Source: a virus. From it: DNA of 64,000 bases. Location: the IMG/VR virus record IMGVR_UViG_3300005253_000011, positions 1 to 64,000 of that record. One strand, written 5' to 3'. The notes beneath the pieces are model-generated. The model was given only the letters and a program-made list of their open reading frames with translations, was not told the DNA's origin and did not search any database. Positions 2,159 through 63,588 of this stretch are shown here, one piece after another; within the stretch, counting starts at the first letter, position 1; the number at the start of each line of letters is the position of its first letter. The position numbers were made by a program, and so were the translations under genes.

Positions 2159-2382
2159 TATGATTTAATTATGAGCTTCCCTTCCAGTCTGGCTTTTTCG
2201 TCGGCGGTGAACCAATCATCCACATTGGTGTGAGACAGGATATCTAAGATCATTTTCCTATTATACAATTCCATCCAACTTAGATTACCGCTTAAAGAAC
2301 CCTGTTGGTGTATACCAAATGTATCGTGATTGGCTTGCTTAGTTACATCACGAGCATATTTTTCTTCTGCAGTCTGTGCCAT
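2158..2382 (-). CDS. hypothetical protein
   Basis: 74-aa ORF; its stop overlaps the next start; AT-rich Bacteroidota-type leader. Confidence 0.6.
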   Translation of the reverse strand: MAQTAEEKYARDVTKQANHDTFGIHQQGSLSGNLSWMELYNRKMILDILSHTNVDDWFTADEKARLEGKLIIKS

Positions 2383-2894
2383 AATTTTAAATTTTTTTTA
2401 AAAGTTAATCCTTTTGTGTATTTACGTTCCCCCCTTAAAACATGGTGAATAGCCGCTTTATTAACATCGTAGATCCTAGCCGCCTCCGCTATAGATGGGT
2501 GAGAAGATTTAAACTCACCCGTTCTGTAATCATACACATCAATAGGCACTGGGGTCATCCCAGCATTTGGTGACCTGTATATTAATCCTGTACGGAACGC
2601 GTGTAATATATTTTCAGATCGTGTAGACCACTCTAAATTAGATTTATCATTGTTTGCCTTGATGCCGTCAATATGATTGACTTCACGCTTATTTTCAGGG
2701 TTAGAAATGAAAGCTTTAGCAACTAATCTAGCAATATATTTATGATGCCTTTTTCCGTCTTTGTGTAGACCTACCCTACAATAGCCTTGATTAGGTGTGA
2801 ATGGCTGCAGGTATAGCTTTTTTCTTAAACTATATATCCTTCCATCAGACGTAACTTCATAATCCGCAAATCCTTCTATTACTTTTTTCTCCAT
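2343..2894 (-). CDS. NUMOD4-HNH homing endonuclease with C-terminal NUMOD1-like HTH
   Basis: IEGFADYEVTSDGRIYS (NUMOD4), EVNHIDGIKANNDKSNLEW (HNH), SIAEAAR (NUMOD1/IENR1-like). Confidence 0.9.
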   Translation of the reverse strand: MEKKVIEGFADYEVTSDGRIYSLRKKLYLQPFTPNQGYCRVGLHKDGKRHHKYIARLVAKAFISNPENKREVNHIDGIKANNDKSNLEWSTRSENILHAFRTGLIYRSPNAGMTPVPIDVYDYRTGEFKSSHPSIAEAARIYDVNKAAIHHVLRGERKYTKGLTFKKNLKLWHRLQKKNMLVM

Positions 2895-21155: not shown

Positions 21156-21698
21156 TTATAAATTATAATTAATAAGGTTATTTATCCACTGCGTAAAATC
21201 TTCAATAGACATCGTTCCTTTTGCTGTATTGCAATATTTACAGCAGGAAACGGTATTCGTTATCGTATATCCTTTGTCATTATCTACTCTGTCTATCCCG
21301 CTATAAGTGTATGCGCCATTATAATCTCTAACAGATAATGTATTGGATGGAGGAACACCACAATAATGACAATTTCCTTTATGGAGTGTCATAATCTGCT
21401 CGTCAGTTAAAGAATGTTCAATATTCCTTTTTTTAGCATTGGTTTTATGGACGCTTAATATTTTATTGCGGATAGCTACCCCTTTAGGGAGTTTCCCATT
21501 TTCGGCGACTTCTTTAGCTAAACACCCACAACTTTTAATTCTTCCGTCTGTTACATGGGTTCCCCTTATAATTTTCTCATTACCACAATCACATTTGCAT
21601 AACCAGCATGTACTTCCCCATTTATCAGTATGAGAAAACTCAATTACAGTAAACCGGTTAAACTTCTGCCCTATTATGTTAATTCGTTTTTTACTCAT
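21156..21698 (-). CDS. Cys-rich HNH-type homing endonuclease
   Basis: Same motifs as 19807..20361 and 54474..55013. Confidence 0.8.
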   Translation of the reverse strand: MSKKRINIIGQKFNRFTVIEFSHTDKWGSTCWLCKCDCGNEKIIRGTHVTDGRIKSCGCLAKEVAENGKLPKGVAIRNKILSVHKTNAKKRNIEHSLTDEQIMTLHKGNCHYCGVPPSNTLSVRDYNGAYTYSGIDRVDNDKGYTITNTVSCCKYCNTAKGTMSIEDFTQWINNLINYNL

Positions 21699-23078: not shown

Positions 23079-23912
23079 CTATTCAGTTGCTGGGTGGCCC
23101 ACCAGTCTCCTTCTTTCAAGGTCGCTCTGAAGCTCTTTTGCTTCACCGATATATTCTTCAGCGTACACACCTGTTAAGGATCTGCGTAAATCTTTAATAC
23201 TCATTTTATCGACGTGTGCAACGCCTTTCTGATAACAAGTATTAATTACGCTCTCATCCTTCATGGCAATTACTTGGTTCGCGGCCTTAACCCGGAACTC
23301 ATTATATACACCACTCGCACCCATCGTTGCATTCAAACTCTCAAAGAATTCAACCGCATACATGGGATGGTTCCTTAAAAATTCAATCTCCGCTTTCAAG
23401 TGCGTGGTAAAGGTACAGCTGTTAACAATCGCTTCTTCGTGACCTTCCTTACGCCTATCACTAGACGCATAATGGAGAGTGATCAATTTGTATGGAGGCA
23501 TTACTTCCATACCCTTATGATCAAGGTACGAGCCGATTACATAAAAAACTTTCCTACATGAAAATAGCACACCCTCATCCTGAAAGTCATCTGCTGGTAC
23601 TGGCTTGTATATCGGTTTGCCAGTCATCTGCATGCTCTGAGACAATGCTACCTGGTCCGAAAGTAACTTAACCTGCACCTGGAGCGTACTAATCATCTCC
23701 GCATTGGGGTCTGCTACTGGTTGTACTGGGGCAACTAGTACCTTCTCAGGTACTGGCTCCGCAGCCTTATCTTTCCACTCCTGAAGCTCTTGTAAAAGAT
23801 CTTCATTCTTCTTCTGCAATTCAATAGCCTCTTTACGGGCCTTGATTGCCGCAGGGCTAAGCTTCGCTTGCGCTGCTGGTTGTGTGGCTTGCGCCTGTTC
23901 TGTAATTGCCAT
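23079..23912 (-). CDS. conserved capsid-module protein following MCP
   Basis: 277-aa ORF with an AT-rich leader; position only. Confidence 0.55.
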   Translation of the reverse strand: MAITEQAQATQPAAQAKLSPAAIKARKEAIELQKKNEDLLQELQEWKDKAAEPVPEKVLVAPVQPVADPNAEMISTLQVQVKLLSDQVALSQSMQMTGKPIYKPVPADDFQDEGVLFSCRKVFYVIGSYLDHKGMEVMPPYKLITLHYASSDRRKEGHEEAIVNSCTFTTHLKAEIEFLRNHPMYAVEFFESLNATMGASGVYNEFRVKAANQVIAMKDESVINTCYQKGVAHVDKMSIKDLRRSLTGVYAEEYIGEAKELQSDLERRRLVGHPATE

Positions 23913-23920
23913 CTTAAATA

Positions 23921-24331
23921 TTATTTTATCACGTTATTAATAAGAATTTCTGGGATTAATTCTTTTGGTATAAGTTTACTGTGTGACAATGAGCCGTCAA
24001 AAAAATCGCCCGGTAACTCAATAAATTTGTTTAATTTATCTAACTATGCTAAATACACATCCACCTCACTTTTAGTTGTTAAAGCCCCGCCTTTGGATAT
24101 TGACCAACTATTTTTTATGGTCTTTGCTTTTAAGCCTGCAACTTTCACATTAACACGAATGAACTCACCATCTTTCTCCGCTACAAAATCATATCCGTGG
24201 TCTGTGACTAAGGATATCAAAATGCGATAACCCTTGTTAGAATAATAAGAATATCCAGTTAATTCAACTGTTTGCCAATTTGTCTCAGCTACCACATCAG
24301 CCCTGCTAGCAGTGCCTAATCTCTCTTTCAT
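23921..24331 (-). pseudogene. PD-(D/E)XK homing endonuclease (PDDEXK_5-like) interrupted by in-frame TAG at 24044-24046
   Basis: VEL......KGY.I.....D.GYDFVAEKDGEFIRVNVKVA motif; the frame continues past TAG as LDKLNKFIELP... to TAA at 23921. Confidence 0.6.
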
Positions 24332-24343
24332 ATAAGTAAACTT

Positions 24344-24374
24344 AAAAGAGTAGAGGGCCGAAACCCTCTACTTT
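24344..24374 (-). terminator. intrinsic terminator after major capsid gene
   Basis: AGTAGAGGG-loop-CCCTCTACT stem followed by CTTTT on the minus strand. Confidence 0.75.
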
Positions 24375-24386
24375 ATTATATCAATC

Positions 24387-25733
24387 CTACTGAGGATTAT
24401 GTGCAGTGTACAAGTTGGAAACGATACCGGTTGTATCCATATAGAAAGAGGACAATGGGTTGTTGAACTTTAAGCTCAGCATTCCCTGCGCCCACCATTC
24501 TGTATAGTCCTGAATCGAACCATTCGTCCCCTTAGGAGAAGTCTGACCCAGTTCAATGGACTGATACCCCTGCATACATACAGGATGGATAGTTGATGTA
24601 TCGAGAACAAAAATACGATGTTGCCAGGTAACTGGGAAGCAAGAGACTTCCTTGAACAATTCAGTTGCTACAGGTACGAAGCTCATGTCTCCGATCTTAT
24701 AGATCTGAAGGTTCAGGTCACCAATCTTATCGTCCGGCTTATACCTTAAACCAGTTTCTTTCCAAGCTTTGGACAATTCATACAGAAGCGCGTTCTGTGC
24801 GAATACGAAGCGAACTCCGCCTTCAGCCTTGTAGTCTGTCTCAAAACACAAAGTTTCGAACGACTCCTGAAGAGTAGCTTTGGTTACACCAGAGGCGCTT
24901 GCAGATCCAGCAGCGATCATACTCGGGAAGATTCCCTGCATGGTCATTGCCTTATAAGGAGAGCTACCATCAGTACCAGGTACCGTGATATTTACTTCAC
25001 CCCTCAAACCGTTCCACAATGAAATGAACATGTCTTGAAGCAACAGATCCATCTGTTCTTTCTTGTCCAATTCGTAGTAGTTCGTATTAGAAAGATTGGC
25101 AAATTTTTGCATTTCCTTACGACTCCAACGCTTGTCGCGGTGCATCAACTGAATATAGTTGTACCGCTCAATCTTGGACATTCTATCGTAATGAGTCAAG
25201 AAATTCTGACCATCAGCGATAACGCCGGTTTGAATCGAGAAATAGTCATCTGTGGAAACTGCAGTAAGATCGGAAGCACCATTGTACTTCTGAACTGTAA
25301 CTACATCACCAGAAACGACCTTTACAATACCTTTAGTATTATCAGGATAAACAATAACCTTATTAATAGTTACGTTATTCCCTCCACCAGTTGTCATGGT
25401 GATAGCCTGGGTTGCGCCAGCAGCTACACCACCTGCAGCTTTGAGAGCCACCCTACCAAAGGTCTTCTCAAGATACGTAAACACATCGTTATCTTCATAT
25501 TGTACGGGTTTGTCCATCAGCAACCGCAAAGCGGAATACTTCTTAGGTACCGCATCAAAAATTTCACGAGCTATCGCCCTGCGAATCAGAATCGTCTCAT
25601 CGGTACTAAATTCCGATGCATATTCCGAGCCTATCGGTTGCAGATTCCACGGTGCCGGGGCGTGTACCGCCGCGGGCTGTACCGGTGAAGGTGTTGCAAC
25701 ATAGGAGTTTGCACTGTTAAATTGATCAGCCAT
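24387..25733 (-). CDS. major capsid protein
   Basis: 448 aa directly after portal and scaffold-like genes; YNYIQL, MQGI and WWAQGMLSLKFNNP HK97/SU10-like signatures; followed by a terminator. Confidence 0.8.
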   Translation of the reverse strand: MADQFNSANSYVATPSPVQPAAVHAPAPWNLQPIGSEYASEFSTDETILIRRAIAREIFDAVPKKYSALRLLMDKPVQYEDNDVFTYLEKTFGRVALKAAGGVAAGATQAITMTTGGGNNVTINKVIVYPDNTKGIVKVVSGDVVTVQKYNGASDLTAVSTDDYFSIQTGVIADGQNFLTHYDRMSKIERYNYIQLMHRDKRWSRKEMQKFANLSNTNYYELDKKEQMDLLLQDMFISLWNGLRGEVNITVPGTDGSSPYKAMTMQGIFPSMIAAGSASASGVTKATLQESFETLCFETDYKAEGGVRFVFAQNALLYELSKAWKETGLRYKPDDKIGDLNLQIYKIGDMSFVPVATELFKEVSCFPVTWQHRIFVLDTSTIHPVCMQGYQSIELGQTSPKGTNGSIQDYTEWWAQGMLSLKFNNPLSSFYMDTTGIVSNLYTAHNPQ

Positions 25734-27065: not shown

Positions 27066-27566
27066 TTATTGTGCTATTTTTTCAAACATCAATCCCTTAG
27101 CGTGTTTACATTTACCTTTTAAAACCTTACTTATATGACTAATTCCCACCCCATAATACCAAGCAGCCTCACTTATAGATGAATGAGTAGATTTAAAATT
27201 CCCTGTTCTACAATCATAGACACATACCGCTATACCATTAGCTTTCTCCAATTGGGGTGATAGGCCTAGACCTATAGCATGATGTATATTTTCTTTATGT
27301 GTTACCCACTCCAAATTGGATTTATCATTATTTGCCTTATTTGCATCCTTATGATTCACCTCCGCCTTATTATCTGTGCTGCAAAGAAAAGCTTCAGCAA
27401 CTAATCTATGAACGTATTTAGTTACCATTTTTCCTTTATGATATAAACCAACCAAATAATAACCACGCGCATTAGGACTAGATTTCAGATATTTATTATT
27501 TCTCAAACTGAATACTCTACCAGATGAAGCCACTAAATAATTCTCAAATCCTTCTATTTTTCTCAT
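27066..27566 (-). CDS. NUMOD4-HNH homing endonuclease
   Basis: Start reassigned to MRKIEGFENY; EVNHKDANKANNDKSNLEW. Confidence 0.9.
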   Translation of the reverse strand: MRKIEGFENYLVASSGRVFSLRNNKYLKSSPNARGYYLVGLYHKGKMVTKYVHRLVAEAFLCSTDNKAEVNHKDANKANNDKSNLEWVTHKENIHHAIGLGLSPQLEKANGIAVCVYDCRTGNFKSTHSSISEAAWYYGVGISHISKVLKGKCKHAKGLMFEKIAQ

Positions 27567-27567
27567 A

Positions 27568-29781
27568 TTATTTACCTTTGTTTCCGGCACCCGGCTTAAT
27601 TGCCGCAGAGATAATTTTTGTAGCCCGATCCTTATCCTTTTGGGAATCCTCTCTGGCCTCATCTCGCAATTTCTCCCCATAAAGAACCTTACCAGTTTCT
27701 TCCTGAGCCTGGTTCTGCATCATAGTTTGATCCTCATTAGCCTGTGATTGCTTACGTTGAAGTTCAGCAAGTCTGCGATGGAATGCTCTAAGTTCTGCCA
27801 AGGCCTCTTCATCGGTAGCTCTACCCATGAGAGTGGCAGCAGTCGGTGCATCAATCAAACTATATTGTAACCAAGATATAGTCCTCTGATCTACGTAAAC
27901 CCGCTCACTGTCTGGATCAATTGTACGTACAAGAGTGGTACGGAACTGTTCATGTCTCATATCCTTAGAAATTTTTAAGATCTCCGCAGATTCTTCACCT
28001 ACTGCGTCAATAAGCTCAACATCCATATCTATATAATACCGCTTTCCGGATGTGGCTATATTCTGATAACACCCATTAAATATGGTATTAATAGCCGCAT
28101 AGAAGGGCTCCTGCATAATGGACCCCCTCTGGATGGCCAGCTGCATAACTCCAACCAACTGATCCGGATTCTGCTGTCCTTTCAAGCCTTCATTCACTCC
28201 ACTTATCTGTTCAATACCATGGCGGAAATTCTCAATTAATTCTGAAAATACCAGGGTGCTTTCTTTGATTCCAGAGTCATAACGCCCTACAGCTTGAGAT
28301 ACACCGCGAGCCCTACCACGGACACCAATCGGTTCACCCCTCTTCATCTTAATGGCAACCTCATCCTCAGAGCCCTCATCAAATAAATCTTTATCGAAGA
28401 CTACACCGGCACCACCAGCATTGTTAATCTGATTCTCCATAACCGACATAAACCGGTTAATCATCCTTTGAGGATTGATAACCACATCGATTGGGGCCAT
28501 ACATTCTCCATCCATATACGCCCATGTACCGCACTTATACGGGGGTTTCATGTTGGTTGGCATATAGAGATCCGGCTCCTGGTAAGGTATGATACCATGA
28601 TCCAGGACAATGTTTTCAGTTGCCTTGGATGAATCATACTTTGAAGCAGATATAATTTCATATGGAATAAATCGGCAAAATCTCCACAGGTCAACTTGAA
28701 GGGCCCTGATGGATCTACCGCGTAATACTTTCTTCTGGTATGGAGTTAGCTGCTCAAGTGGAATTACATCCGCTCTAGTAAATCTTGCTTCCTCTTCTCC
28801 CTCATATATATAATTAAGTCTCTCTAGTATCCTCTGACCGAATTGATCCGTAACGTATCCAAAGTGATCCACAACGGTATCTCTCCACGTGGCATTGTAT
28901 ACCGGCAATCTATTCCGAATATCGAAAGGTTGCCCATTCGCCTGTGTACCTATAATCTGAGATACATAGTTCTCAATAGCTTTCTTCTGCGGAAGTGATA
29001 GATCCTGATGACGCTCATAAATATCAGTTGCCAAGGAGTAATCAAACTCATAGAAATATTCTGAATCGGAAAGATCTTCCTCAGTGGCTCCACGATCCCA
29101 TCCAAACCTATCAACCGGAATTCTTTTAAATTGCCATTCTCCATTCAATGGAAAGGGATGAACAATACCAATACCGCCGGCTGCTATATCAACGGCCAGT
29201 TGCTTTTTAAGCCGGTCTAATCTGGATGTCTTGGCTACATATCTCAGTAACCTATTCATTGCAACGACGTAATTATCCACATAAGTATTCTCAAACCTCA
29301 TGGCAACATCATCCTCATCCTTGCCAGTCAAATATCCCTGCTTCTGCATCACAGCACCAAATTCCGGGAATATCTCAGCTGCGTATCCGTATGCCTGTAA
29401 CCTGGCCAGAGACTTATCCCTACGGCTTTTCGCCATGGGTGATATAGCCTGGACCTTTACATCGAATGTCATCCGTTCTGCATTTCCACGGTATTGCTCT
29501 ACCATAGGCTGGATGAAGTTTCTGGTTACTTTGATCCGGTTACGGTCCTGTCCGGACTCATCTTTGAAGAACGCCTCAGTATCCTCCGACAGGAGCCACT
29601 GTTTGTCCCTATAAAAGTTCATGTTGGTTTGATACTTGGCTACGTGGTCCTGCTGCTTTTTACGCATTCCTTCACCAATTACCCAACGGGCATACTCGAC
29701 GTGATAGATGTCACCCTTATCAACCTCCTGAGTTTCAATACGGTTAGGCTTACTTTGACGAGTTTGTATAAGCTGTAGCAT
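27568..29781 (-). CDS. portal protein
   Basis: 737 aa; N.IQPMVEQYRG, PQRMINR and EQISGVNE..G signatures of P22-like/crAss-like portals; lies between terminase and scaffold. Confidence 0.85.
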   Translation of the reverse strand: MLQLIQTRQSKPNRIETQEVDKGDIYHVEYARWVIGEGMRKKQQDHVAKYQTNMNFYRDKQWLLSEDTEAFFKDESGQDRNRIKVTRNFIQPMVEQYRGNAERMTFDVKVQAISPMAKSRRDKSLARLQAYGYAAEIFPEFGAVMQKQGYLTGKDEDDVAMRFENTYVDNYVVAMNRLLRYVAKTSRLDRLKKQLAVDIAAGGIGIVHPFPLNGEWQFKRIPVDRFGWDRGATEEDLSDSEYFYEFDYSLATDIYERHQDLSLPQKKAIENYVSQIIGTQANGQPFDIRNRLPVYNATWRDTVVDHFGYVTDQFGQRILERLNYIYEGEEEARFTRADVIPLEQLTPYQKKVLRGRSIRALQVDLWRFCRFIPYEIISASKYDSSKATENIVLDHGIIPYQEPDLYMPTNMKPPYKCGTWAYMDGECMAPIDVVINPQRMINRFMSVMENQINNAGGAGVVFDKDLFDEGSEDEVAIKMKRGEPIGVRGRARGVSQAVGRYDSGIKESTLVFSELIENFRHGIEQISGVNEGLKGQQNPDQLVGVMQLAIQRGSIMQEPFYAAINTIFNGCYQNIATSGKRYYIDMDVELIDAVGEESAEILKISKDMRHEQFRTTLVRTIDPDSERVYVDQRTISWLQYSLIDAPTAATLMGRATDEEALAELRAFHRRLAELQRKQSQANEDQTMMQNQAQEETGKVLYGEKLRDEAREDSQKDKDRATKIISAAIKPGAGNKGK

Positions 29782-35868: not shown

Positions 35869-35899
35869 TTGCACAATCCAATTTTTATTTGTAATTTTG
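35869..35899 (+). promoter_or_regulatory. promoter of the tmRNA precursor
   Basis: TTG-N20-TAATTTTG directly upstream of the acceptor piece. Confidence 0.6.
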
Positions 35900-35902
35900 T
35901 CC

Positions 35903-36311
35903 CAGTCCTTTGATGATTGATATGTTGAAAGGCATTTGGACATGGGTTCGATTCCCATACACTCCACTAGAAAAGTCCAACCGGTAGCCAGAAAGAGTAT
36001 ATTCTGCTGGTGTCTATTCGGCTCTGGCCTTGGGGGATGATTCACTGCCACGGTATCCTGTTGAGGAACAGGTAATCCCACGGATAAGGTGAATATTCCT
36101 CCCCCCTTGCAAAAGGGTAAGTTACAATTTTGTAAGATACGGGGTGTACCGGCTTTTGACAGTGCTAGAGTAGGATATCAGGAGAAGACTAGCTAATTAA
36201 CAGGCGAAAATGTTAAATTAATTCCTCATGGCAACTTCAAGGAAGCAGCCTAGCTAGGAGCCCGGGTCCCATGACCTCCAGGATAAGATCGGGAAGGGTG
36301 GGTCCCCCGGG
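35903..36311 (+). ncRNA. ssrA: circularly permuted (two-piece) tmRNA
   Basis: The acceptor piece (T-arm ATGGG-TTCGATT-CCCAT, ACACTCC-A ending at 35966) lies upstream of the coding piece that starts GGGGTGTACCGGCTTTTGAC at 36141. The 7-bp acceptor stem includes G3.U70. Tag frame 36203-36253 reads GENVKLIPHGNFKEAA*. Outer ends are approximate. Confidence 0.88.
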
Positions 36312-36330
36312 TAAACTTAAAACGTGATAA

Positions 36331-37047
36331 ATGAAGAAACAACTTTTGCAATTACAAGGTCGGTCCAGAACCATTACATCCTATTTGGATAATCTGAACA
36401 TCAACGCAGACGTAGTAGAACAGTACAACAAGCTTGGAAATCAAGGTCTTGTCCATTGGAAAGAGTGGAGAGACATTATGCAGGATGAAGAGAAGTACAA
36501 AGCTCTGTCTCCCATCGAGCAACAAACACTGCATGAGAATTCCAGGTCCTACACTCAAATGCTTACTGAGCTTGATAATGAGGTTAAATATCTTACTAAT
36601 ACCAAGCATTCCCTGGCCCTGGCCGATTGCCTCAATCACATCCTTTCAGCTAATCAGCTGTTAGACAAACTTGTAGATATTTATGGTGGTCGTGATGGAG
36701 CCTTCAGTTTCACTAAACTCAAGCACGTCAGACAAAAAGGCTGGGACAAGACTGGATATAAAGACAAAGTATTCAATCTGGCCACAGAGCTGGATCTGTT
36801 GACTGAAGATTTCGGTAATCTTCTGAATACTGAGGAAAAAATGAATTTTGTCCAAACTACAGTAGACGCATTAATGAATTACATTTATGTATCCTTTGTA
36901 CAATCGCTAGCATGGCTTAACAGTGAATATGATCGTATAGAGCAGCAAGGGATGCCGGAAGCAGGAGAATTTAAGCTCCCTGAGATCCAGGTACCTAAAG
37001 TACCAGAGGATGGCGAAAGTGATCAGTCAGAAAAACCTAAGGAGTAA
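36331..37047 (+). CDS. hypothetical protein
   Basis: 238-aa helical ORF. Confidence 0.65.
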   Translation: MKKQLLQLQGRSRTITSYLDNLNINADVVEQYNKLGNQGLVHWKEWRDIMQDEEKYKALSPIEQQTLHENSRSYTQMLTELDNEVKYLTNTKHSLALADCLNHILSANQLLDKLVDIYGGRDGAFSFTKLKHVRQKGWDKTGYKDKVFNLATELDLLTEDFGNLLNTEEKMNFVQTTVDALMNYIYVSFVQSLAWLNSEYDRIEQQGMPEAGEFKLPEIQVPKVPEDGESDQSEKPKE

Positions 37048-45224: not shown

Positions 45225-45344
45225 AAGCGAGCATGTCACTCGCTAATTTATCAGCGCACTCATCACATATTGTAAGTGGCTTGATAAGATGCGGGATATA
45301 CTTTTTTCCGCACTTAACACATTTTCTTGTATAATCTTCCATAG

Positions 45345-45417
45345 AGCTGAAGAGAGGATTCGAACCCCTGGCCAGTTCCTTACAAGGGAACAGCTCTACC
45401 AACTGAGCTACTTCAGC
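45345..45417 (-). tRNA. tRNA-Thr(TGT)
   Basis: Full cloverleaf: GCTGAAG/CTTCAGC, anticodon loop CTTGTAA; CCA not encoded. Confidence 0.92.
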
Positions 45418-45508
45418 ATTGCCGGGTTGAAAACTACGCCATTTAAACCTCCCCCGGCGGGACTGGAGTTTTGCTCCACTCATCCCATAAATTTGAGCTG
45501 TACAGATC

Positions 45509-45667
45509 TTAATATGGCCTCTTGAAGATCCCATACCCACTTTCGAGTATTAGAACCAGCTCCCAGCCCTCATGACCAAATTCGTTCAATTTCTCCCGAA
45601 GCAACCTGTTGTCGTTTCGATGCATGTACATTGTGTTGTAATTCCATCTTTTCTTGAATAATCTCAT
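45509..45667 (-). CDS. DUF4177-like small protein
   Basis: W.Y......L.EKLNEFG.EGWELV...FKRP. Confidence 0.55.
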   Translation of the reverse strand: MRLFKKRWNYNTMYMHRNDNRLLREKLNEFGHEGWELVLILESGYGIFKRPY

Positions 45668-46058
45668 CGTTTTATATTTTAGTCTGCAATCGTTGCAAAT
45701 ATTAGATCCACATATAATACTTCCGATATCTGGCACATAATGTGACCACTAGCGAAAGCCTTGCTTCCTTCAAAGTCTTCCAGGTCGCCATGCTATCATC
45801 TTCATCCATCATTGGGATCGTCATCGATGGATCGCCGTCTTTTAAACATAGTATTCCGTACATTATTTTAGTTTTGTGAGTGCGATTAATACTGATTCTA
45901 CTTCTTCCATGCCAACCGGATACTCCCCCTCATGAGTGATGTTACTGAGTTCGTCAATTAAATGATAATCAAACTCCCAACTATTGTACCAGTCACCTTT
46001 GTTAAAGTCGACATGCATTGGCCGCATGCCTCAAGTCTTTTAGTTTTCCCATAGTCTG

Positions 46059-46334
46059 TTATTCAAAACCGCCGTATGTAACTACTCTGGAGACTTCCTT
46101 CTCACACACCGTACATATCTGTATATCAGTGTACTTAGCTTTGTGAAGGTAACCCCCAGCGACATATTCATTCTCTTCTCTTACATGCTTGTGAGGACAG
46201 ATACCCTGTAATTCCTTTAGAAGCTCTCGTACCGTAGTCTCTGCGGTAATAGTCTCATCTTGTAAAGTTTTAATGTGGTTTCTATAACACACTATCTGTT
46301 TAATAAGATTCGCTCGTCTCTCCTTCTTTTTCAT
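46059..46334 (-). CDS. hypothetical protein (CPH...CxxC)
   Basis: 91-aa ORF. Confidence 0.55.
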   Translation of the reverse strand: MKKKERRANLIKQIVCYRNHIKTLQDETITAETTVRELLKELQGICPHKHVREENEYVAGGYLHKAKYTDIQICTVCEKEVSRVVTYGGFE

Positions 46335-46360
46335 CGTTTTACCTTTAATAATAAGTTATG

Positions 46361-46433
46361 TAGCCCCACGGAGAATCGAACTCCGGTATTCAGCATGAAA
46401 AGCTGACGTCCTGGTCCACTAGACGACAGGGCC
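46361..46433 (-). tRNA. tRNA-Glu(TTC)
   Basis: Cloverleaf GGCCCTG/TGGGGCT, anticodon loop TTTTCAT, T arm CGGAG-TTCGATT-CTCCG. Confidence 0.88.
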
Positions 46434-46787
46434 ATTCCTATAACCATTTACATTCACTTATCTTGGCTCGGCAAGACTGCCGTTTACCATCAATCTTAAC
46501 TGCCTTCCCATCTACGTGAGAGTAATTGGGATAAAAGGGGATCGCCCAGACCATATACTCCCGGTCCTCATACATGAATCTCTGGTACATTACTGGTTTC
46601 CTACCCATTATCTCATTTTGTTATCCGTAAGGAATTCCGTCAACCTCTCTCCCATCTTCTCAACATCATCATGTGTGAATCCTTTCTCCATCATGACATC
46701 AGTGAATGATTGCCAGCGCCCAGCTACGAAATGATCGTAGTCTGAAATGATTTCTAAAACTTGTGCATCCATAATCTTAATTATTAG

Positions 46788-46828
46788 TGCCAAGGTGAGG
46801 AGTCGAACCCCCATACCCGGTCCCTGGC
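46788..46828 (-). ncRNA. mini-tRNA-like element (acceptor stem + T arm, no D or anticodon arm)
   Basis: GCCAGGG-ACCGGGTA-TGGGGG-TTCGACT-CCTCA-CCTTGGC-A. Confidence 0.6.
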
Positions 46829-46850
46829 TACTCCTAGAAGTATCGCAATG

Positions 46851-46925
<75 letters not shown>

Positions 46926-54473: not shown

Positions 54474-55013
54474 TTATAATTTTAAATGTGAACACGATTG
54501 TTTTAACCAATCCAAATATTCATCATAAGTACGACTACGTTTAGCATAATTGCAATCCATACAACATGGTACCACATTCGCAAGGGTATACCCTTTAGTA
54601 TCATCTACTCTGTCTATCCCGTTGTAAGTGTATGAACCGTTAGCACCAAGAGGGAAATATGTATTTGAGGGCGAACAACCGCAATAATGACAATTTCCTT
54701 TATGAATAGCTATAATCTGTTCATCGGTTAAAGCTGATTCATGATTTCTTCGTTTAGCATCCATCTTATGATTATGTATTACCTTATTTCGAGCTGCTAC
54801 CCCTTCAGGGAGTCGCCGCCGTTTACTACGCAACTCTTTAGCTAAACAACCACAACTGTTAGTAGTGCCCCTTTTAAGATTATTACCTATAACTACTATC
54901 TCATTCCCACAATCACATTTACATAACCAATACGATTTCTCTTTATCAGTATGTGAAAACTCAATCACAGTAAGCCTCCCAAACTTCTGCCCTATTAATT
55001 CTAGTCGTTTCAA
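54474..55013 (-). CDS. Cys-rich HNH-type homing endonuclease
   Basis: Close paralog of 21156..21698. Confidence 0.8.
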   Translation of the reverse strand: MKRLELIGQKFGRLTVIEFSHTDKEKSYWLCKCDCGNEIVVIGNNLKRGTTNSCGCLAKELRSKRRRLPEGVAARNKVIHNHKMDAKRRNHESALTDEQIIAIHKGNCHYCGCSPSNTYFPLGANGSYTYNGIDRVDDTKGYTLANVVPCCMDCNYAKRSRTYDEYLDWLKQSCSHLKL

Positions 55014-60273: not shown

Positions 60274-60777
60274 TTATTGTATTTTATTGAAAGTTAATCC
60301 TTTTGTTTGTTTATACTTACCCTGTAAAACTTTATGCGCATTTTGTAGTTGTAATCCATATGATCTAGCGGCGTCAGACATAGAAGGATGAGTTGATAGA
60401 AGTTTTCCTGTTTTATAATCATATACATTTACAGGAATTGGTTTCATGCCCGAATTTGGGGAACGTTTCCATAATCCTAATGCTATAGCGTGCTGCATAT
60501 TTTCTGATTGTGTTACCCACTCTAAATTGGAAACATTATTATTAAATTTATTTCCATCTTTATGATTAATTTGCGGCTTATTATCCGGATTTGATATAAA
60601 AGCTTCTGCAACTAATCGAGAAATATATTTATAGTGTGTTTTATTTTGTTTACGTAATCCTACTCTGTAATATCCCCAATTAGTGGGTAATGGTTTTAGA
60701 CATTTATTACGAAACAAACTAAATATCTTTCCTGAATCCTCTATTAGGTAATTTTCAAATCCCTTTATTGATTTCAT
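60274..60777 (-). CDS. NUMOD4-HNH homing endonuclease
   Basis: IKGFENYLI, QINHKDGNKFNNNVSNLEW. Confidence 0.9.
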   Translation of the reverse strand: MKSIKGFENYLIEDSGKIFSLFRNKCLKPLPTNWGYYRVGLRKQNKTHYKYISRLVAEAFISNPDNKPQINHKDGNKFNNNVSNLEWVTQSENMQHAIALGLWKRSPNSGMKPIPVNVYDYKTGKLLSTHPSMSDAARSYGLQLQNAHKVLQGKYKQTKGLTFNKIQ

Positions 60778-62879
60778 CCTATTATTTTAGTTGCTCCTAA
60801 TTCGTCTGCTACCGCCGTTAATGTCGATGAATACAAACTATCGATATGTGGCGAATGGGTGATCACGTAAATTGATTTCCCTTCCTCAGCTTTTGCCCTA
60901 ATTAAATCAAATACTGCAGCCTCACCAGCTTCGTCGAGCCCTTCAAAAATTTCGTCCATGATCAATATGTCAATATTACTATCAGCACTAACCAGGGTAT
61001 ACATGGCAAAGATCAGAACAATATCTAAACGTTGTTTCTGGCCTCCGGAGAACTCTTTATACTCCTTATTGAATTTCTTTCCAACAGAGCATACGGTGGT
61101 GAATGGCTTGGAAGCTTTGGTCAAGTCAATACTGAACTCAATGGATACTCCCAGACGATCCGAATAAGGCTTCACATACTCATTCAAATCATTCAACATA
61201 GCCTTGAAGACGAAGGATGGGAGACCAGCAGCAACAAACCCCTTCTTAGTCCACCATTGGTGCAGGTTCATTTCATATGCAATGTCCTCCAGTGTGATAT
61301 TCATCTCATCCAGCCCCTTATCAAATTTATCATACTTATCAATCAATTGATCAATAGTATGCGAAAACTTAGGTGGCTCCTCTTTCTGTGCTGTCTCCAG
61401 GGATGATATCATCACTTCAATCTGACCTGTATAAACCTTAATCTCATTCTCATTGCTCGTCACCTTCTCAGTTTTCTTGGTAATTTCACCGGCTTCTATT
61501 TGCAGGGCCATCTCTTTTTTTGTCCCCTCTGTGAACATTCGCTTAACATCCTGACCATCCTCTTCAGCTTTATTGTGTGCGTCCTTGGCTTTTATAGCAG
61601 CATTTCCAGCGTCTCCCAGTTCTTTAATCGCCCCTTTCCGGATATCCTTTAGTTCCGGTAGGTTAGAAATCGGTGGTTTTTCTGCCTTCTTTGCCTCTAA
61701 TTTGGCGTCCGCGGCTTCCAATTGTGGAATATACGTATCCACTATAGAATTCTTAACAGCTGTAACATTAGCTAATGGGAGTTTCTGCTCACAGGCGTAA
61801 CATATATCCTTAACAGCCTTAATCTCCTCAGCCTTTTTATTCGTCAACTCTTGTAATTCATCCTTTAATCCGGATACGGCTCCAGCCTTATCAATCACCC
61901 ACTTATCACACCGCTTCTTCTCGATATTGACATTAGTTTCAGCAACTACATCAGCCCTACTGGCAATGCCTAATCTATTTCCGGCCTCTACATGCGCATT
62001 ATATGGAACTTCAAGAGTCTTCTCCAAGGCATTATACTGCCGCTCCAGCTCATCCATCTCTGTCTTAAACTTATCAAACGCCTCAGCATCCCATTTGTCA
62101 ATTTCTACTGTAAGTTCCTCACTTTCGAACTTACATGCAGTGAGATCATCCCTGGTGTTGGCGATATCCTCAGAGATCTTATTACAGTTCTCTACTTTTT
62201 TATCCTCAAACTCCTCCAGTAGCCTAGTCTGTTCATTGGTTTCAGTTGTAAGAGCTTCCATCTGTAAAGTCAGGCTATTCTGCTCTCCCTCTGCTTTCAG
62301 ACAGTCAACAGAAAGCTCCAAAAGTTTCGCACCAGCTTTGGCCTTACCATCATTGATGAATGCTGTCTCAAATAACCTTTCAAAGAGATCTCTCTTATCC
62401 TTATTATCTGATTCTACCAGTTTAGGCATACGCTGCCCAAATAGAATGGATGCCATAAAAGTTTGTGAATCGATACCCAGAAGGGTAATGATCTGTGCCT
62501 GGACATCCTTTTTATGGACACCGATCTGATTCTGGCCTCTGATAACCAAGGCATCTCTGCCTATACCTTCTCCGCCTGACCAGCCTATGGTCCTAACTAT
62601 CCAATAATCACGACCATCAACCTCAATGGTAGTCTCTGTATAGGTCCCACGGAAAGCATCAGTACGAGAATCTTCCCATGTTGGGATCTTCTCATTGGTG
62701 GTATCCTTTAGGTTTGTCCCGTAGATACACCACACCACGACTTCAAATAAGGTAGTTTTCCCTGCCCCATTCTCGCCCTTTACTAGGTTAAGGCCCGGAC
62801 GGTCCAGATTTACCTCAGTACGCTCAGCAAGGCTACGGAAGCCTTCTGCAACGACGTTCTTTATCTTGATTATTTTCAT
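60774..62879 (-). CDS. sbcC: SbcC/Rad50 (gp46-like) ATPase
   Basis: GENGAGKTT, CYAC zinc hook in coiled coil, FSGGQ signature, ILIMDE, ITH. Confidence 0.92.
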   Translation of the reverse strand: MKIIKIKNVVAEGFRSLAERTEVNLDRPGLNLVKGENGAGKTTLFEVVVWCIYGTNLKDTTNEKIPTWEDSRTDAFRGTYTETTIEVDGRDYWIVRTIGWSGGEGIGRDALVIRGQNQIGVHKKDVQAQIITLLGIDSQTFMASILFGQRMPKLVESDNKDKRDLFERLFETAFINDGKAKAGAKLLELSVDCLKAEGEQNSLTLQMEALTTETNEQTRLLEEFEDKKVENCNKISEDIANTRDDLTACKFESEELTVEIDKWDAEAFDKFKTEMDELERQYNALEKTLEVPYNAHVEAGNRLGIASRADVVAETNVNIEKKRCDKWVIDKAGAVSGLKDELQELTNKKAEEIKAVKDICYACEQKLPLANVTAVKNSIVDTYIPQLEAADAKLEAKKAEKPPISNLPELKDIRKGAIKELGDAGNAAIKAKDAHNKAEEDGQDVKRMFTEGTKKEMALQIEAGEITKKTEKVTSNENEIKVYTGQIEVMISSLETAQKEEPPKFSHTIDQLIDKYDKFDKGLDEMNITLEDIAYEMNLHQWWTKKGFVAAGLPSFVFKAMLNDLNEYVKPYSDRLGVSIEFSIDLTKASKPFTTVCSVGKKFNKEYKEFSGGQKQRLDIVLIFAMYTLVSADSNIDILIMDEIFEGLDEAGEAAVFDLIRAKAEEGKSIYVITHSPHIDSLYSSTLTAVADELGATKIIG

Positions 62880-63352
62880 TGTTTAAAATTTAAACCTGCG
62901 TTATTACCATATAATTCTAAAACTTTAGTATCATAAGCCCTGGCAGCTTCCTCAGCCGTCTCAAAATAACCAAGATGCAGCCTTTTGTTATTTATTCTAC
63001 ACCTGCTGGCAAAACAACGTGTGCGATTAGGGTAATAAGTTACGCCTTTATACCCGGACTTGGCCCATGTCTTTTTATTTTGATTATTCACCGAAGCAGT
63101 AGAATTTCTAAGATTACTTTTACAGTTATTTAAACCATTCCGGTCTATATGATCAACCTGAATACCTATAGGAGTATTCATTATTACTCGGTGCATACGT
63201 ACTGTCGTTTGTTTTCCTTCTGAACGGCTAATTCTACAAGCATAGAACACATCTTTATCCTTTTTAGCGTACCATTTGAACCAACTTAGATAAACATAAT
63301 CTTCGTCATCTACCTGAGTTACTTTACCTTGTGTAAGTTTAATCTGTTTCAT
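62876..63352 (-). CDS. HNH-AP2 homing endonuclease
   Basis: VDHIDRNGLNNCKSNLR; SGYKGV...HLGYFETAEEAARAYD. Confidence 0.9.
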   Translation of the reverse strand: MKQIKLTQGKVTQVDDEDYVYLSWFKWYAKKDKDVFYACRISRSEGKQTTVRMHRVIMNTPIGIQVDHIDRNGLNNCKSNLRNSTASVNNQNKKTWAKSGYKGVTYYPNRTRCFASRCRINNKRLHLGYFETAEEAARAYDTKVLELYGNNAGLNFKQ

Positions 63353-63588
63353 TCCTCTATTATTACATCAAGATCCATATCAAAAAGCCCACCTGGAAGG
63401 CGATACTGACCAAAATTCTTTTCAAGCTCCTCAACAACCTTATACCATTCGTCACTATCTTCATCAAGCTTATCGAGTTTAACGGATAAAACATCAAAAG
63501 TTCTGTAATAAAGCTCTGGTATCAAATACCAGTGATTAGAATTGTCTTGTCTTAATTTTCCTGTCTGGAATTTATAAGGTGTTTTCAT
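63349..63588 (-). CDS. hypothetical protein
   Basis: 79 aa, coupled. Confidence 0.55.
   Translation of the reverse strand: MKTPYKFQTGKLRQDNSNHWYLIPELYYRTFDVLSVKLDKLDEDSDEWYKVVEELEKNFGQYRLPGGLFDMDLDVIIEE

Follow-up and report, generated by a model that had tools for sequence, protein, structure and literature searches.

A segment of the sbcC coiled-coil region at the start of a phage PD-(D/E)XK nuclease gene

Exon-fused intron open reading frames (ORFs) of fungal mitochondria are endonuclease ORFs that wear pieces of host genes. We describe a related arrangement in a 64,000-nucleotide (nt) stretch of viral DNA (positions 1 to 64,000 of the IMG/VR record IMGVR_UViG_3300005253_000011, hereafter the window), in which a gene for a predicted PD-(D/E)XK nuclease begins with 15 codons that closely resemble an internal segment of the sbcC gene of the same genome. 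As in the mitochondrial ORFs, a selfish endonuclease ORF begins with host-gene codons that would supply its start. In those ORFs, the borrowed piece is the start or flank of a neighbouring gene, whereas the piece in the window stems from the coiled-coil interior of a distant gene, and probably from another allele.

The setting resembles that of the free-standing homing endonuclease genes (HEGs) seg and mob of phage T4. The window nuclease is a small ORF in an intergenic position between conserved genes and beside an essential (capsid) gene, close relatives of the phage lack it, and the sbcC gene is bracketed by two further endonuclease genes. One report describes endonuclease genes next to essential genes, in "HEG islands", and at recombination boundaries (PMC10448857). 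Another, on T4, describes illegitimate double-strand-break repair at microhomology, which lets endonuclease-bearing elements enter ectopic sites (PMC2988022), and the junctions in the window are consistent with such microhomology (AAT). Unlike the T4 genes, the window nuclease has a PD-(D/E)XK (PF11645) fold and not GIY-YIG or HNH, its homing is putative, and its captured piece comes from a gene interior 37.6 kb away instead of from an insertion-site flank.

The enzyme I-Ssp6803I, described as a PD-(D/E)XK homing endonuclease from a tRNA intron of a cyanobacterium (PDB 2OST, PMC3384342), belongs to PF11645, as does the window nuclease. The profile of the phage clade aligned to 2ost_A over 89 positions with the YD...(Q/N)VK residues matched, the sequence link between the two being weak (E 0.37). 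Unlike I-Ssp6803I, the phage gene is not in an intron, its clade has the motif N-V-K in 20/20 members, and the window copy is truncated. An association of endonuclease genes with DNA-repair genes has also been reported for the fractured genes of environmental phages (PMC2677866), but in our case sbcC is intact in the window and in all relatives aligned, and no split form was found among short proteins. A titles-level listing of the literature on PF11645/PDDEXK_5 and I-Ssp6803I contained no paper devoted to free-standing phage members, and the neighbourhood tables of PMC10448857 may list PF11645-type genes beside capsid genes.

The capture of fragments around selfish endonuclease genes is already known, and no new mechanism is implied here. 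What is unusual is the nature of the captured piece, a highly conserved coil motif from inside a distant gene, with the codon signature of another allele. The locus is a clean, datable example of how selfish phage nuclease genes gain new front ends.

The shared piece in sbcC and in the nuclease gene

The features compared in this section are the following.
24278-24322, minus strand: 15 codons in the nuclease gene (the leader), encoding RLGTASRADVVAETN, residues 4-18 of a 95-amino-acid (aa) ORF.
61932-61976, minus strand: 15 codons in the sbcC gene, encoding RLGIASRADVVAETN, residues 302-316 of a 701-aa SbcC/Rad50-like protein.
24044-24331, minus strand: the truncated PD-(D/E)XK (PF11645-type) ORF, 95 aa, ending at an in-frame TAG (24044-24046); phrog_5018, 5.3e-9.
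60774-62879, minus strand: the sbcC/rad50-like gene, 701 aa; SMC_N 57 bits, AAA_23 47.4 and SbcC_Walker_B 27.8, all at or above their cut-offs; phrog_77, 3.1e-69.
24323-24331, minus strand: ATG AAA GAG ahead of the shared piece, a start codon and two codons of uncertain origin.

The first-pass annotation of the window reported that these two genes share a 15-aa peptide, with six of seven differences synonymous and unrelated flanks. The shared piece is real and non-random, and it was correctly described. In pairwise comparison, the leader and the resident sbcC piece, which lie 37.6 kb apart, were identical at 38/45 nt. Six of the seven differences were synonymous, all at third codon positions, and the remaining one exchanged T and I. 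The 36-nt flanks matched at 10/36 and 8/36 positions, which is the chance level. No third copy was found in the whole 83,113-nt virus record, in which direct terminal repeats are present. When exact 10-residue peptides common to two loci were counted in six frames, there were 0 in 20 mononucleotide shuffles of the window and 11 in the real window, of which three came from the leader/sbcC pair (two in frame and one on the opposite strand) and the others from HNH-type paralogues and a tandem repeat. If seven substitutions were placed randomly in the 45 nt, one amino-acid change or none would be expected with a probability of 0.001–0.003 (transition bias 1–4). This synonymous excess is significant, so that neutral accumulation in a dead leader is not how the changes arose.

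We checked the nuclease locus on Logan contigs from two samples of one study, X1 (depth 48.6, spanning 23400-24900) and X2 (depth 8.55, spanning 23400-24709), and found 0 differences across the nuclease cassette, including the leader and the TAG, although both contigs are possibly the source of the record. The sbcC locus is colinear with its relatives.

In SbcC, the peptide is native. The 701-aa protein has the features that define SbcC/Rad50, namely an N-terminal Walker A head, a C-terminal Walker B/signature region, a long antiparallel coiled coil and a CxxC hook. We aligned it with P0035, P0036 (the G001 sequence), P0037 and P0038 from a protein collection and with the translated metagenome locus L017. 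These five relatives were 83, 77, 71, 71 and 52% identical to the window SbcC, and the six sequences aligned over 701 columns with 0 gaps, so that the peptide is a gapless part of SbcC. The hook (C360-Y-A-C363) was invariant. At residues 302-316, the relatives had RLGTASKNDVVAETN, RAGTASRADVVAETN and RLGTASRADAVAETN (twice), and L017 had ..SKASRADVVAETN; the consensus of the SbcC sequences at these positions is exactly the leader peptide RLGTASRADVVAETN. Columns A306, S307, D310 and V312-V317 were invariant, taking in 8/15 positions of 302-316, and the motif region was the densest invariant run of the coil between residue 230 and the hook.

An AlphaFold2 (AF2) model of SbcC, built from the six-sequence alignment, had a mean predicted local distance difference test score (pLDDT) of 61 and was used only for helix assignment in the coil (pLDDT 71–86). 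It predicted helices at 160-354 and 369-545 and placed the motif in the ascending coiled-coil helix 265-354 (pLDDT about 75), ~44 residues ahead of the CxxC hook. Counting residues from the hook puts the motif roughly opposite a conserved PPxSNLxEL break (399-406; region 399-410) in the descending arm. The stretch ASRADVVAETNV (window 61923-61976, SbcC 302-319) was nearly invariant down to 52% identity while the surrounding coil varied, and this region may be a conserved joint of the SbcC coiled coil. The strong conservation of a 12-residue motif within the SbcC coil across this phage clade is possibly worth more than the shared peptide itself.

Outside the window, the motif was found in sbcC genes only. 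Scans with its coding pattern returned one stretch in IMG/VR (G001) and three in JGI metagenomes (the G001 sequence twice and L017 once), all inside sbcC genes. None of the six SbcC sequences was interrupted. There was no sign of an intein, as the window SbcC had no gap against its five relatives and no Hint/intein family was detected in SbcC or the nuclease protein (E<=1). In a set of 5.8 billion proteins, none of 30–384 aa matched SbcC 262-361 at E<=0.1, which is weak evidence, and no split SbcC half or longer fusion appeared in that search of short proteins. GenBank phages had no DNA-level match to the nuclease region or sbcC, and at the protein level they yielded one weak nuclease match and SbcC homologues of only 23–26% identity, too distant for the motif to be judged.

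In the nuclease, the peptide is an addition. Our nuclease alignment comprised 19 of 32 database homologues, the 13 left out being lower-ranked or partial entries; the 32 homologues covered only 65–85% of the query. The leader peptide was present in 0/19 aligned homologues and 0/10 IMG/VR loci, and in all ten of these loci (nine distinct sequences) the match began at query residue 15–26. Of the 19 homologues, 13 begin with M-[D/N]-W and four start 1–5 residues before the W; in the remaining two, an internal MNW follows an unrelated extension. The junction codons in the window are ACA AAT TGG (...ETN/W...) versus ATG AAT/GAT TGG in the relatives. On this comparison, the leader is foreign to the nuclease and was grafted on, with replacement of the gene's own start codon. 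Because the leader matches the consensus of the SbcC clade and is absent from the nuclease homologues, the direction of transfer was from sbcC to the nuclease gene. The earlier suggestion that a mobile nuclease gene captured the piece thus gains support from the absence of the leader in homologues, from its match to the SbcC consensus, and from the lack of the cassette in G001 and in a contig of run X9 (see below). In a weak AF2 model of the nuclease with its leader (mean pLDDT 72), residues 1-29 scored 41–53 and the leader was without structure.

At the nucleotide level, the leader behaves like a third sbcC allele. Over the 45 nt, it differed from the resident piece at 7 positions and from the G001 sbcC at 10, and the resident piece differed from G001 at 9. 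Residue I305 is private to the resident sbcC; T stands there in the leader and in 4/5 other SbcC sequences, and K in L017. All codon states private to the leader (GCT, GTG, GAG, ACA, and AGC versus AGT) are synonymous; one of them, GAG, is also found in L017. Contigs of the sbcC type were obtained from runs X4 and X9, which cover parts of the window stretch, and our conclusions from them are limited to one joint and the sbcC-type pieces. The X4 contig had 4/44 mismatches to positions 24285-24328, compared to 9/44 for the resident sbcC, 11/44 for G001 and 17/44 for L017, and its loose ends translated as SbcC flanks (...HAANEAA / (E)TNVNLEKKRV). The sbcC-type contig of run X9 likewise matched the shared piece only and had the flanks ...GKVHAEAAKR / VDLEKKRVDK.

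Since the divergence between leader and resident piece matches that between sbcC alleles, no selection on the N-terminus of the nuclease is required. In the simplest reading, the divergence would have arisen while both alleles were working sbcC genes under purifying selection. The proposal that selection acts on the peptide therefore holds for SbcC, where it is the most conserved stretch of the coil between the head domain and the zinc hook in 6/6 sequences, and not for the nuclease copy, for which allele-like divergence suffices. This provides a caution for sequence scans: where two copies differ only synonymously, the difference may stem from the source gene, without any selection on the copy.

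The X4 alignment extends through the AAAGAG behind the ATG of the leader, and the captured piece may therefore be 51 nt long (codons 300-316), with AAAGAG coming from the donor allele. On the other hand, G001 sbcC begins ATGAAAGAGA, and an MKE start is found in 4/6 SbcC sequences but in only 1/64 long frames of the window; ATGAAAGAG may thus be an echo of the sbcC start, in which MKE (sbcC codons 1-3) was joined to 302-316. As AAAGAG is included in the alignment of the X4 allele, we favoured a contiguous 51-nt capture over this second possibility; the leader comes from sbcC in either case. The leader also contains a perfect 10-bp palindrome, CTGCTAGCAG (24303-24312, minus strand), which arises from two leader-private synonymous states and is absent from the three sbcC alleles examined as DNA. 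By our own arithmetic, such a palindrome is expected in ~3.5% of 45-nt stretches, and its presence is compatible with chance.

The nuclease gene and its site behind a probable capsid gene

Beyond its 95-aa ORF, the nuclease frame runs on, and three further features define the site.
23921-24043, minus strand: continuation of the nuclease frame behind the TAG, 40 well-conserved codons and TAA; F103, E105, F110 and P122 invariant in 20/20 sequences.
24349-24372, minus strand: terminator-like hairpin behind the upstream gene, common to cassette-free relatives; it marks the left side of the insertion.
24387-25733, minus strand: upstream gene, 448 aa, probable major capsid protein; 27/30 named Atlas look-alike clusters SU10_MCP-type, score 0.98.

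The family label given in the first-pass annotation, PD-(D/E)XK, is upheld by PF11645 (PDDEXK_5), which scored 24.2 bits for the 95-aa ORF (below the cut-off of 26.1) and 27.5 bits with the TAG read through. A precomputed PF11645 match was present in 30/32 database homologues. Residues E23, D48 and N61-V62-K63 were invariant in 20/20 nuclease sequences and aligned to YD...QVK of 2ost_A. They are candidates for the PF11645 catalytic residues (helix-1 Glu, Asp and (D/E/Q)-x-K), with the Asn of N-V-K standing where an acidic or Gln residue is expected.

At the position of the premature TAG, the homologues have Y (14), W (4) or C (1) (n = 19). TAG closes 9/52 long frames of the phage, and no suppressor tRNA was found in the 83-kb genome. 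Recoding of TAG was rejected, as treating it as a sense codon gained no more long open frame than did the same treatment of TGA or TAA. By these measures, TAG is an ordinary stop in this phage. With a true stop, no suppressor tRNA and no gain from recoding, the nuclease gene is truncated, probably recently since the codons behind the TAG have kept their conservation, and it is probably decaying; it lacks the intact reading frame expected of a homing endonuclease gene. No Rfam match, including to group I introns, was found in 23700-24600 (E<=1), and non-coding DNA around the nuclease ORF amounts to only about 55 nt and 8 nt. These two results speak against an ORF encoded by a group I intron.

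The upstream 448-aa protein had no hidden Markov model match and no PDB sequence match; it is probably the major capsid protein, judged by language-model look-alikes alone. In G001, the counterpart of this protein is 92% identical and the nuclease is absent, and the sole match of G001 to the nuclease ORF is its own sbcC motif. The order in G001 is the hairpin behind the upstream gene, a T-run, and ACGTGATAAAAT; in the window, ACGTGATAAAAT lies at the 3' end of the nuclease frame. In a contig of run X9, a cold-seep metagenome belonging to another study, 23937 is joined to 24377; 439 nt are missing, and a hairpin-like stretch of 37 nt lies between the flanks at this empty site. Empty sites in G001 and X9 identify the nuclease cassette as an insertion. 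It spans ~23938-24340 and begins 17 nt after the hairpin. Consistent with what is expected of a homing endonuclease gene, its occurrence is sporadic, with empty sites in close relatives (G001 and X9) and homologues in otherwise unrelated contigs.

Relatives of the nuclease were directly behind head or virion genes in 4/8 distinct loci with a testable upstream neighbour:
L005:255-1437, L006:2046-3351, L008:2003-3369 and L010:1592-3255 (compare window 23921-25733): nuclease relatives behind head genes, the upstream gene encoding a major head protein or a virion structural protein.

The upstream families in these four loci were phrog_371 (twice) and phrog_267 (once), both major head proteins, and phrog_2050, a virion structural protein. 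In the other four loci, the upstream neighbour had no family (two), belonged to a CRISPR-associated family (one), or was a second nuclease copy (one). This distribution suggests that the phage clade of PF11645 genes prefers a niche behind capsid genes, and a habitual seat behind head genes of several families is, like the coil motif, possibly worth more than the peptide itself. One viral contig contained two phrog_5018/PF11645-type genes ~700 nt apart (L013:1825-2244 and L013:2953-3363), near an HNH-related gene (phrog_850/phrog_1314).

Origin of the chimeric front end

We consider it likely that the front end of the nuclease gene is a recombination scar, in which a fragment of another sbcC allele was captured in frame by illegitimate recombination and now heads a mobile nuclease gene behind the capsid gene. 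A free-standing, sporadic PF11645 nuclease gene is inserted behind the probable major capsid gene of this marine-sediment phage, and its M-[D/N]-W start has been replaced by ATG and a 45–51-nt in-frame piece from the sbcC interior (codons 302-316, perhaps 300-316), which would now supply the start codon. The source would most likely be a sbcC allele other than the present one, whether that of a co-infecting relative or one formerly resident in the phage. For the entry, we infer that double-strand-break repair, illegitimate and guided by microhomology, or template switching took place in a genome dense in homing-endonuclease genes. In this proposal, repair at the cassette's 5' end would have drawn on an sbcC end, broken or copied, of a co-infecting phage for filler or template. 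The AAT common to the sbcC piece and an M-N-W start is a possible microhomology; MNW starts occur in 6/19 aligned homologues, MDW being commoner. Only an in-frame join with a start codon would keep the nuclease translated. On this view, the synonymous-only divergence is no more than what normally separates two sbcC alleles under purifying selection on SbcC, and the captured copy inherited it, and the premature TAG would have been acquired afterwards.

Several points weigh against this scenario. The fusion is known from a single instance, and contigs X1 and X2, as possible sources of the record, give it no independent confirmation. No allele was found that is identical to the leader; the top candidate, from X4, matched at 40/44 positions. 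The leader agrees with the SbcC consensus at 15/15 residues, which is equally expected from a selected functional tag. Moreover, the join keeps the frame exactly and falls precisely on the first conserved residue of the nuclease. Unselected filler does not predict this, and the exact join needs the extra assumption of selection for continued translation.

The same sharp, in-frame junction (...ETN/W...) would also be left if the nuclease had once resided inside sbcC after codon 316 and had carried 45–51 nt of 5' flank, the left half-site, to the post-capsid site. Such a relic of a former home is unlikely in our view, even though sbcC is a hot spot for endonuclease genes in this phage and endonuclease-split genes of phage-type repair or replication proteins have been described (PMC2677866). 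All six SbcC sequences are uninterrupted, the search of 30–384-aa proteins (E<=0.1) gave no split SbcC half or longer fusion, and no sbcC sequence is present at the 3' end of the cassette. The present site also looks usual for the family, in view of the 4/8 testable loci behind head or virion genes. Very little probability, in our estimate, belongs to a functional tag, i.e., an SbcC motif that selection keeps on the nuclease, for example because it docks the enzyme to SbcD or to the partner strand within the SbcC coil, or because it signals processing. It would account for a leader without amino-acid change from the SbcC consensus, and its source is the most conserved part of the coil, placed opposite the PPxSNLxEL break by residue count in the AF2 model. 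However, the leader occurs once, being absent from the 19 aligned homologues and the ten loci, the pattern scans matched sbcC only, the gene carries a premature TAG, the leader was modelled without structure (pLDDT 41–53, weak model), and the synonymous pattern is already accounted for by allele divergence. These results likewise leave without support the portable tag and the interaction or cleavage motif put forward in the first-pass annotation. We assign a similarly slight chance to the graft being a device, in which the SbcC joint motif acts as a docking or decoy peptide that recruits the nuclease to SbcCD or interferes with it, or, in a weaker form, to the piece marking a so far unseen class of PD-(D/E)XK homing endonuclease genes that targets the hook-proximal coil of phage rad50.

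Still less probable is the suggestion that the DNA of the sbcC motif is the recognition site of the nuclease and that both copies were recoded synonymously to escape cutting. Homing endonucleases favour conserved coding sequence, and the leader alone has the 10-bp palindrome CTGCTAGCAG, while the archetype of PF11645 is described as reading a pseudo-palindrome (PMC3384342). Against this, a palindrome of this length is expected by chance at the frequency given above, the differences between the copies resemble ordinary allele differences common to other sbcC genes, and members of the nuclease family usually lie downstream of head genes, which belong to at least three different families, and not at sbcC, so that a recoded target site found no support. 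An assembly artefact or chimeric contig has a negligible probability. The record is a metagenome assembly, but the cassette was present without differences in the contigs of two samples at depths of 48.6 and 8.55 (possibly the source contigs), two 45-nt copies with seven mismatches have no long common k-mer by which an assembler could be misled, the reading frame continues across the join, and the flanks of the cassette match relatives.

Endonuclease-rich setting and other features of the window

The genome is unusually rich in endonuclease-like genes. Four HNH_3-type endonuclease genes were found in the window (2343-2894, 27066-27680, 60274-60777 and 62876-63352), two of which bracket sbcC.
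60274-60777, minus strand: HNH_3/NUMOD endonuclease-like gene directly downstream of sbcC, absent from both compared relatives.
62876-63352, minus strand: HNH + AP2 endonuclease-like gene between sbcD and sbcC, absent from both compared relatives.

A 79-aa ORF accompanies the HNH + AP2 gene (62876-63588). In the two relatives, G001 (L003) and L017, sbcD, sbcC and the next gene are contiguous, with none of these insertions. The other two genes, at 2343-2894 and 27066-27680, are HNH_3/NUMOD4/I-HmuI-like.

The window also contains a pair of ~180-aa Cys-rich paralogues (21156-21698 and 54474-55013), which had no Pfam match and share exact stretches of 8–10 residues (WLCKCDCGNE, HKGNCHYCG). Genes for tRNA-Thr, tRNA-Glu and tRNA-Met were located within 45344-46920, and ARAGORN predicted a permuted transfer-messenger RNA gene at 35876-36344 on the plus strand, with the tag ENVKLIPHGNFKEAA.

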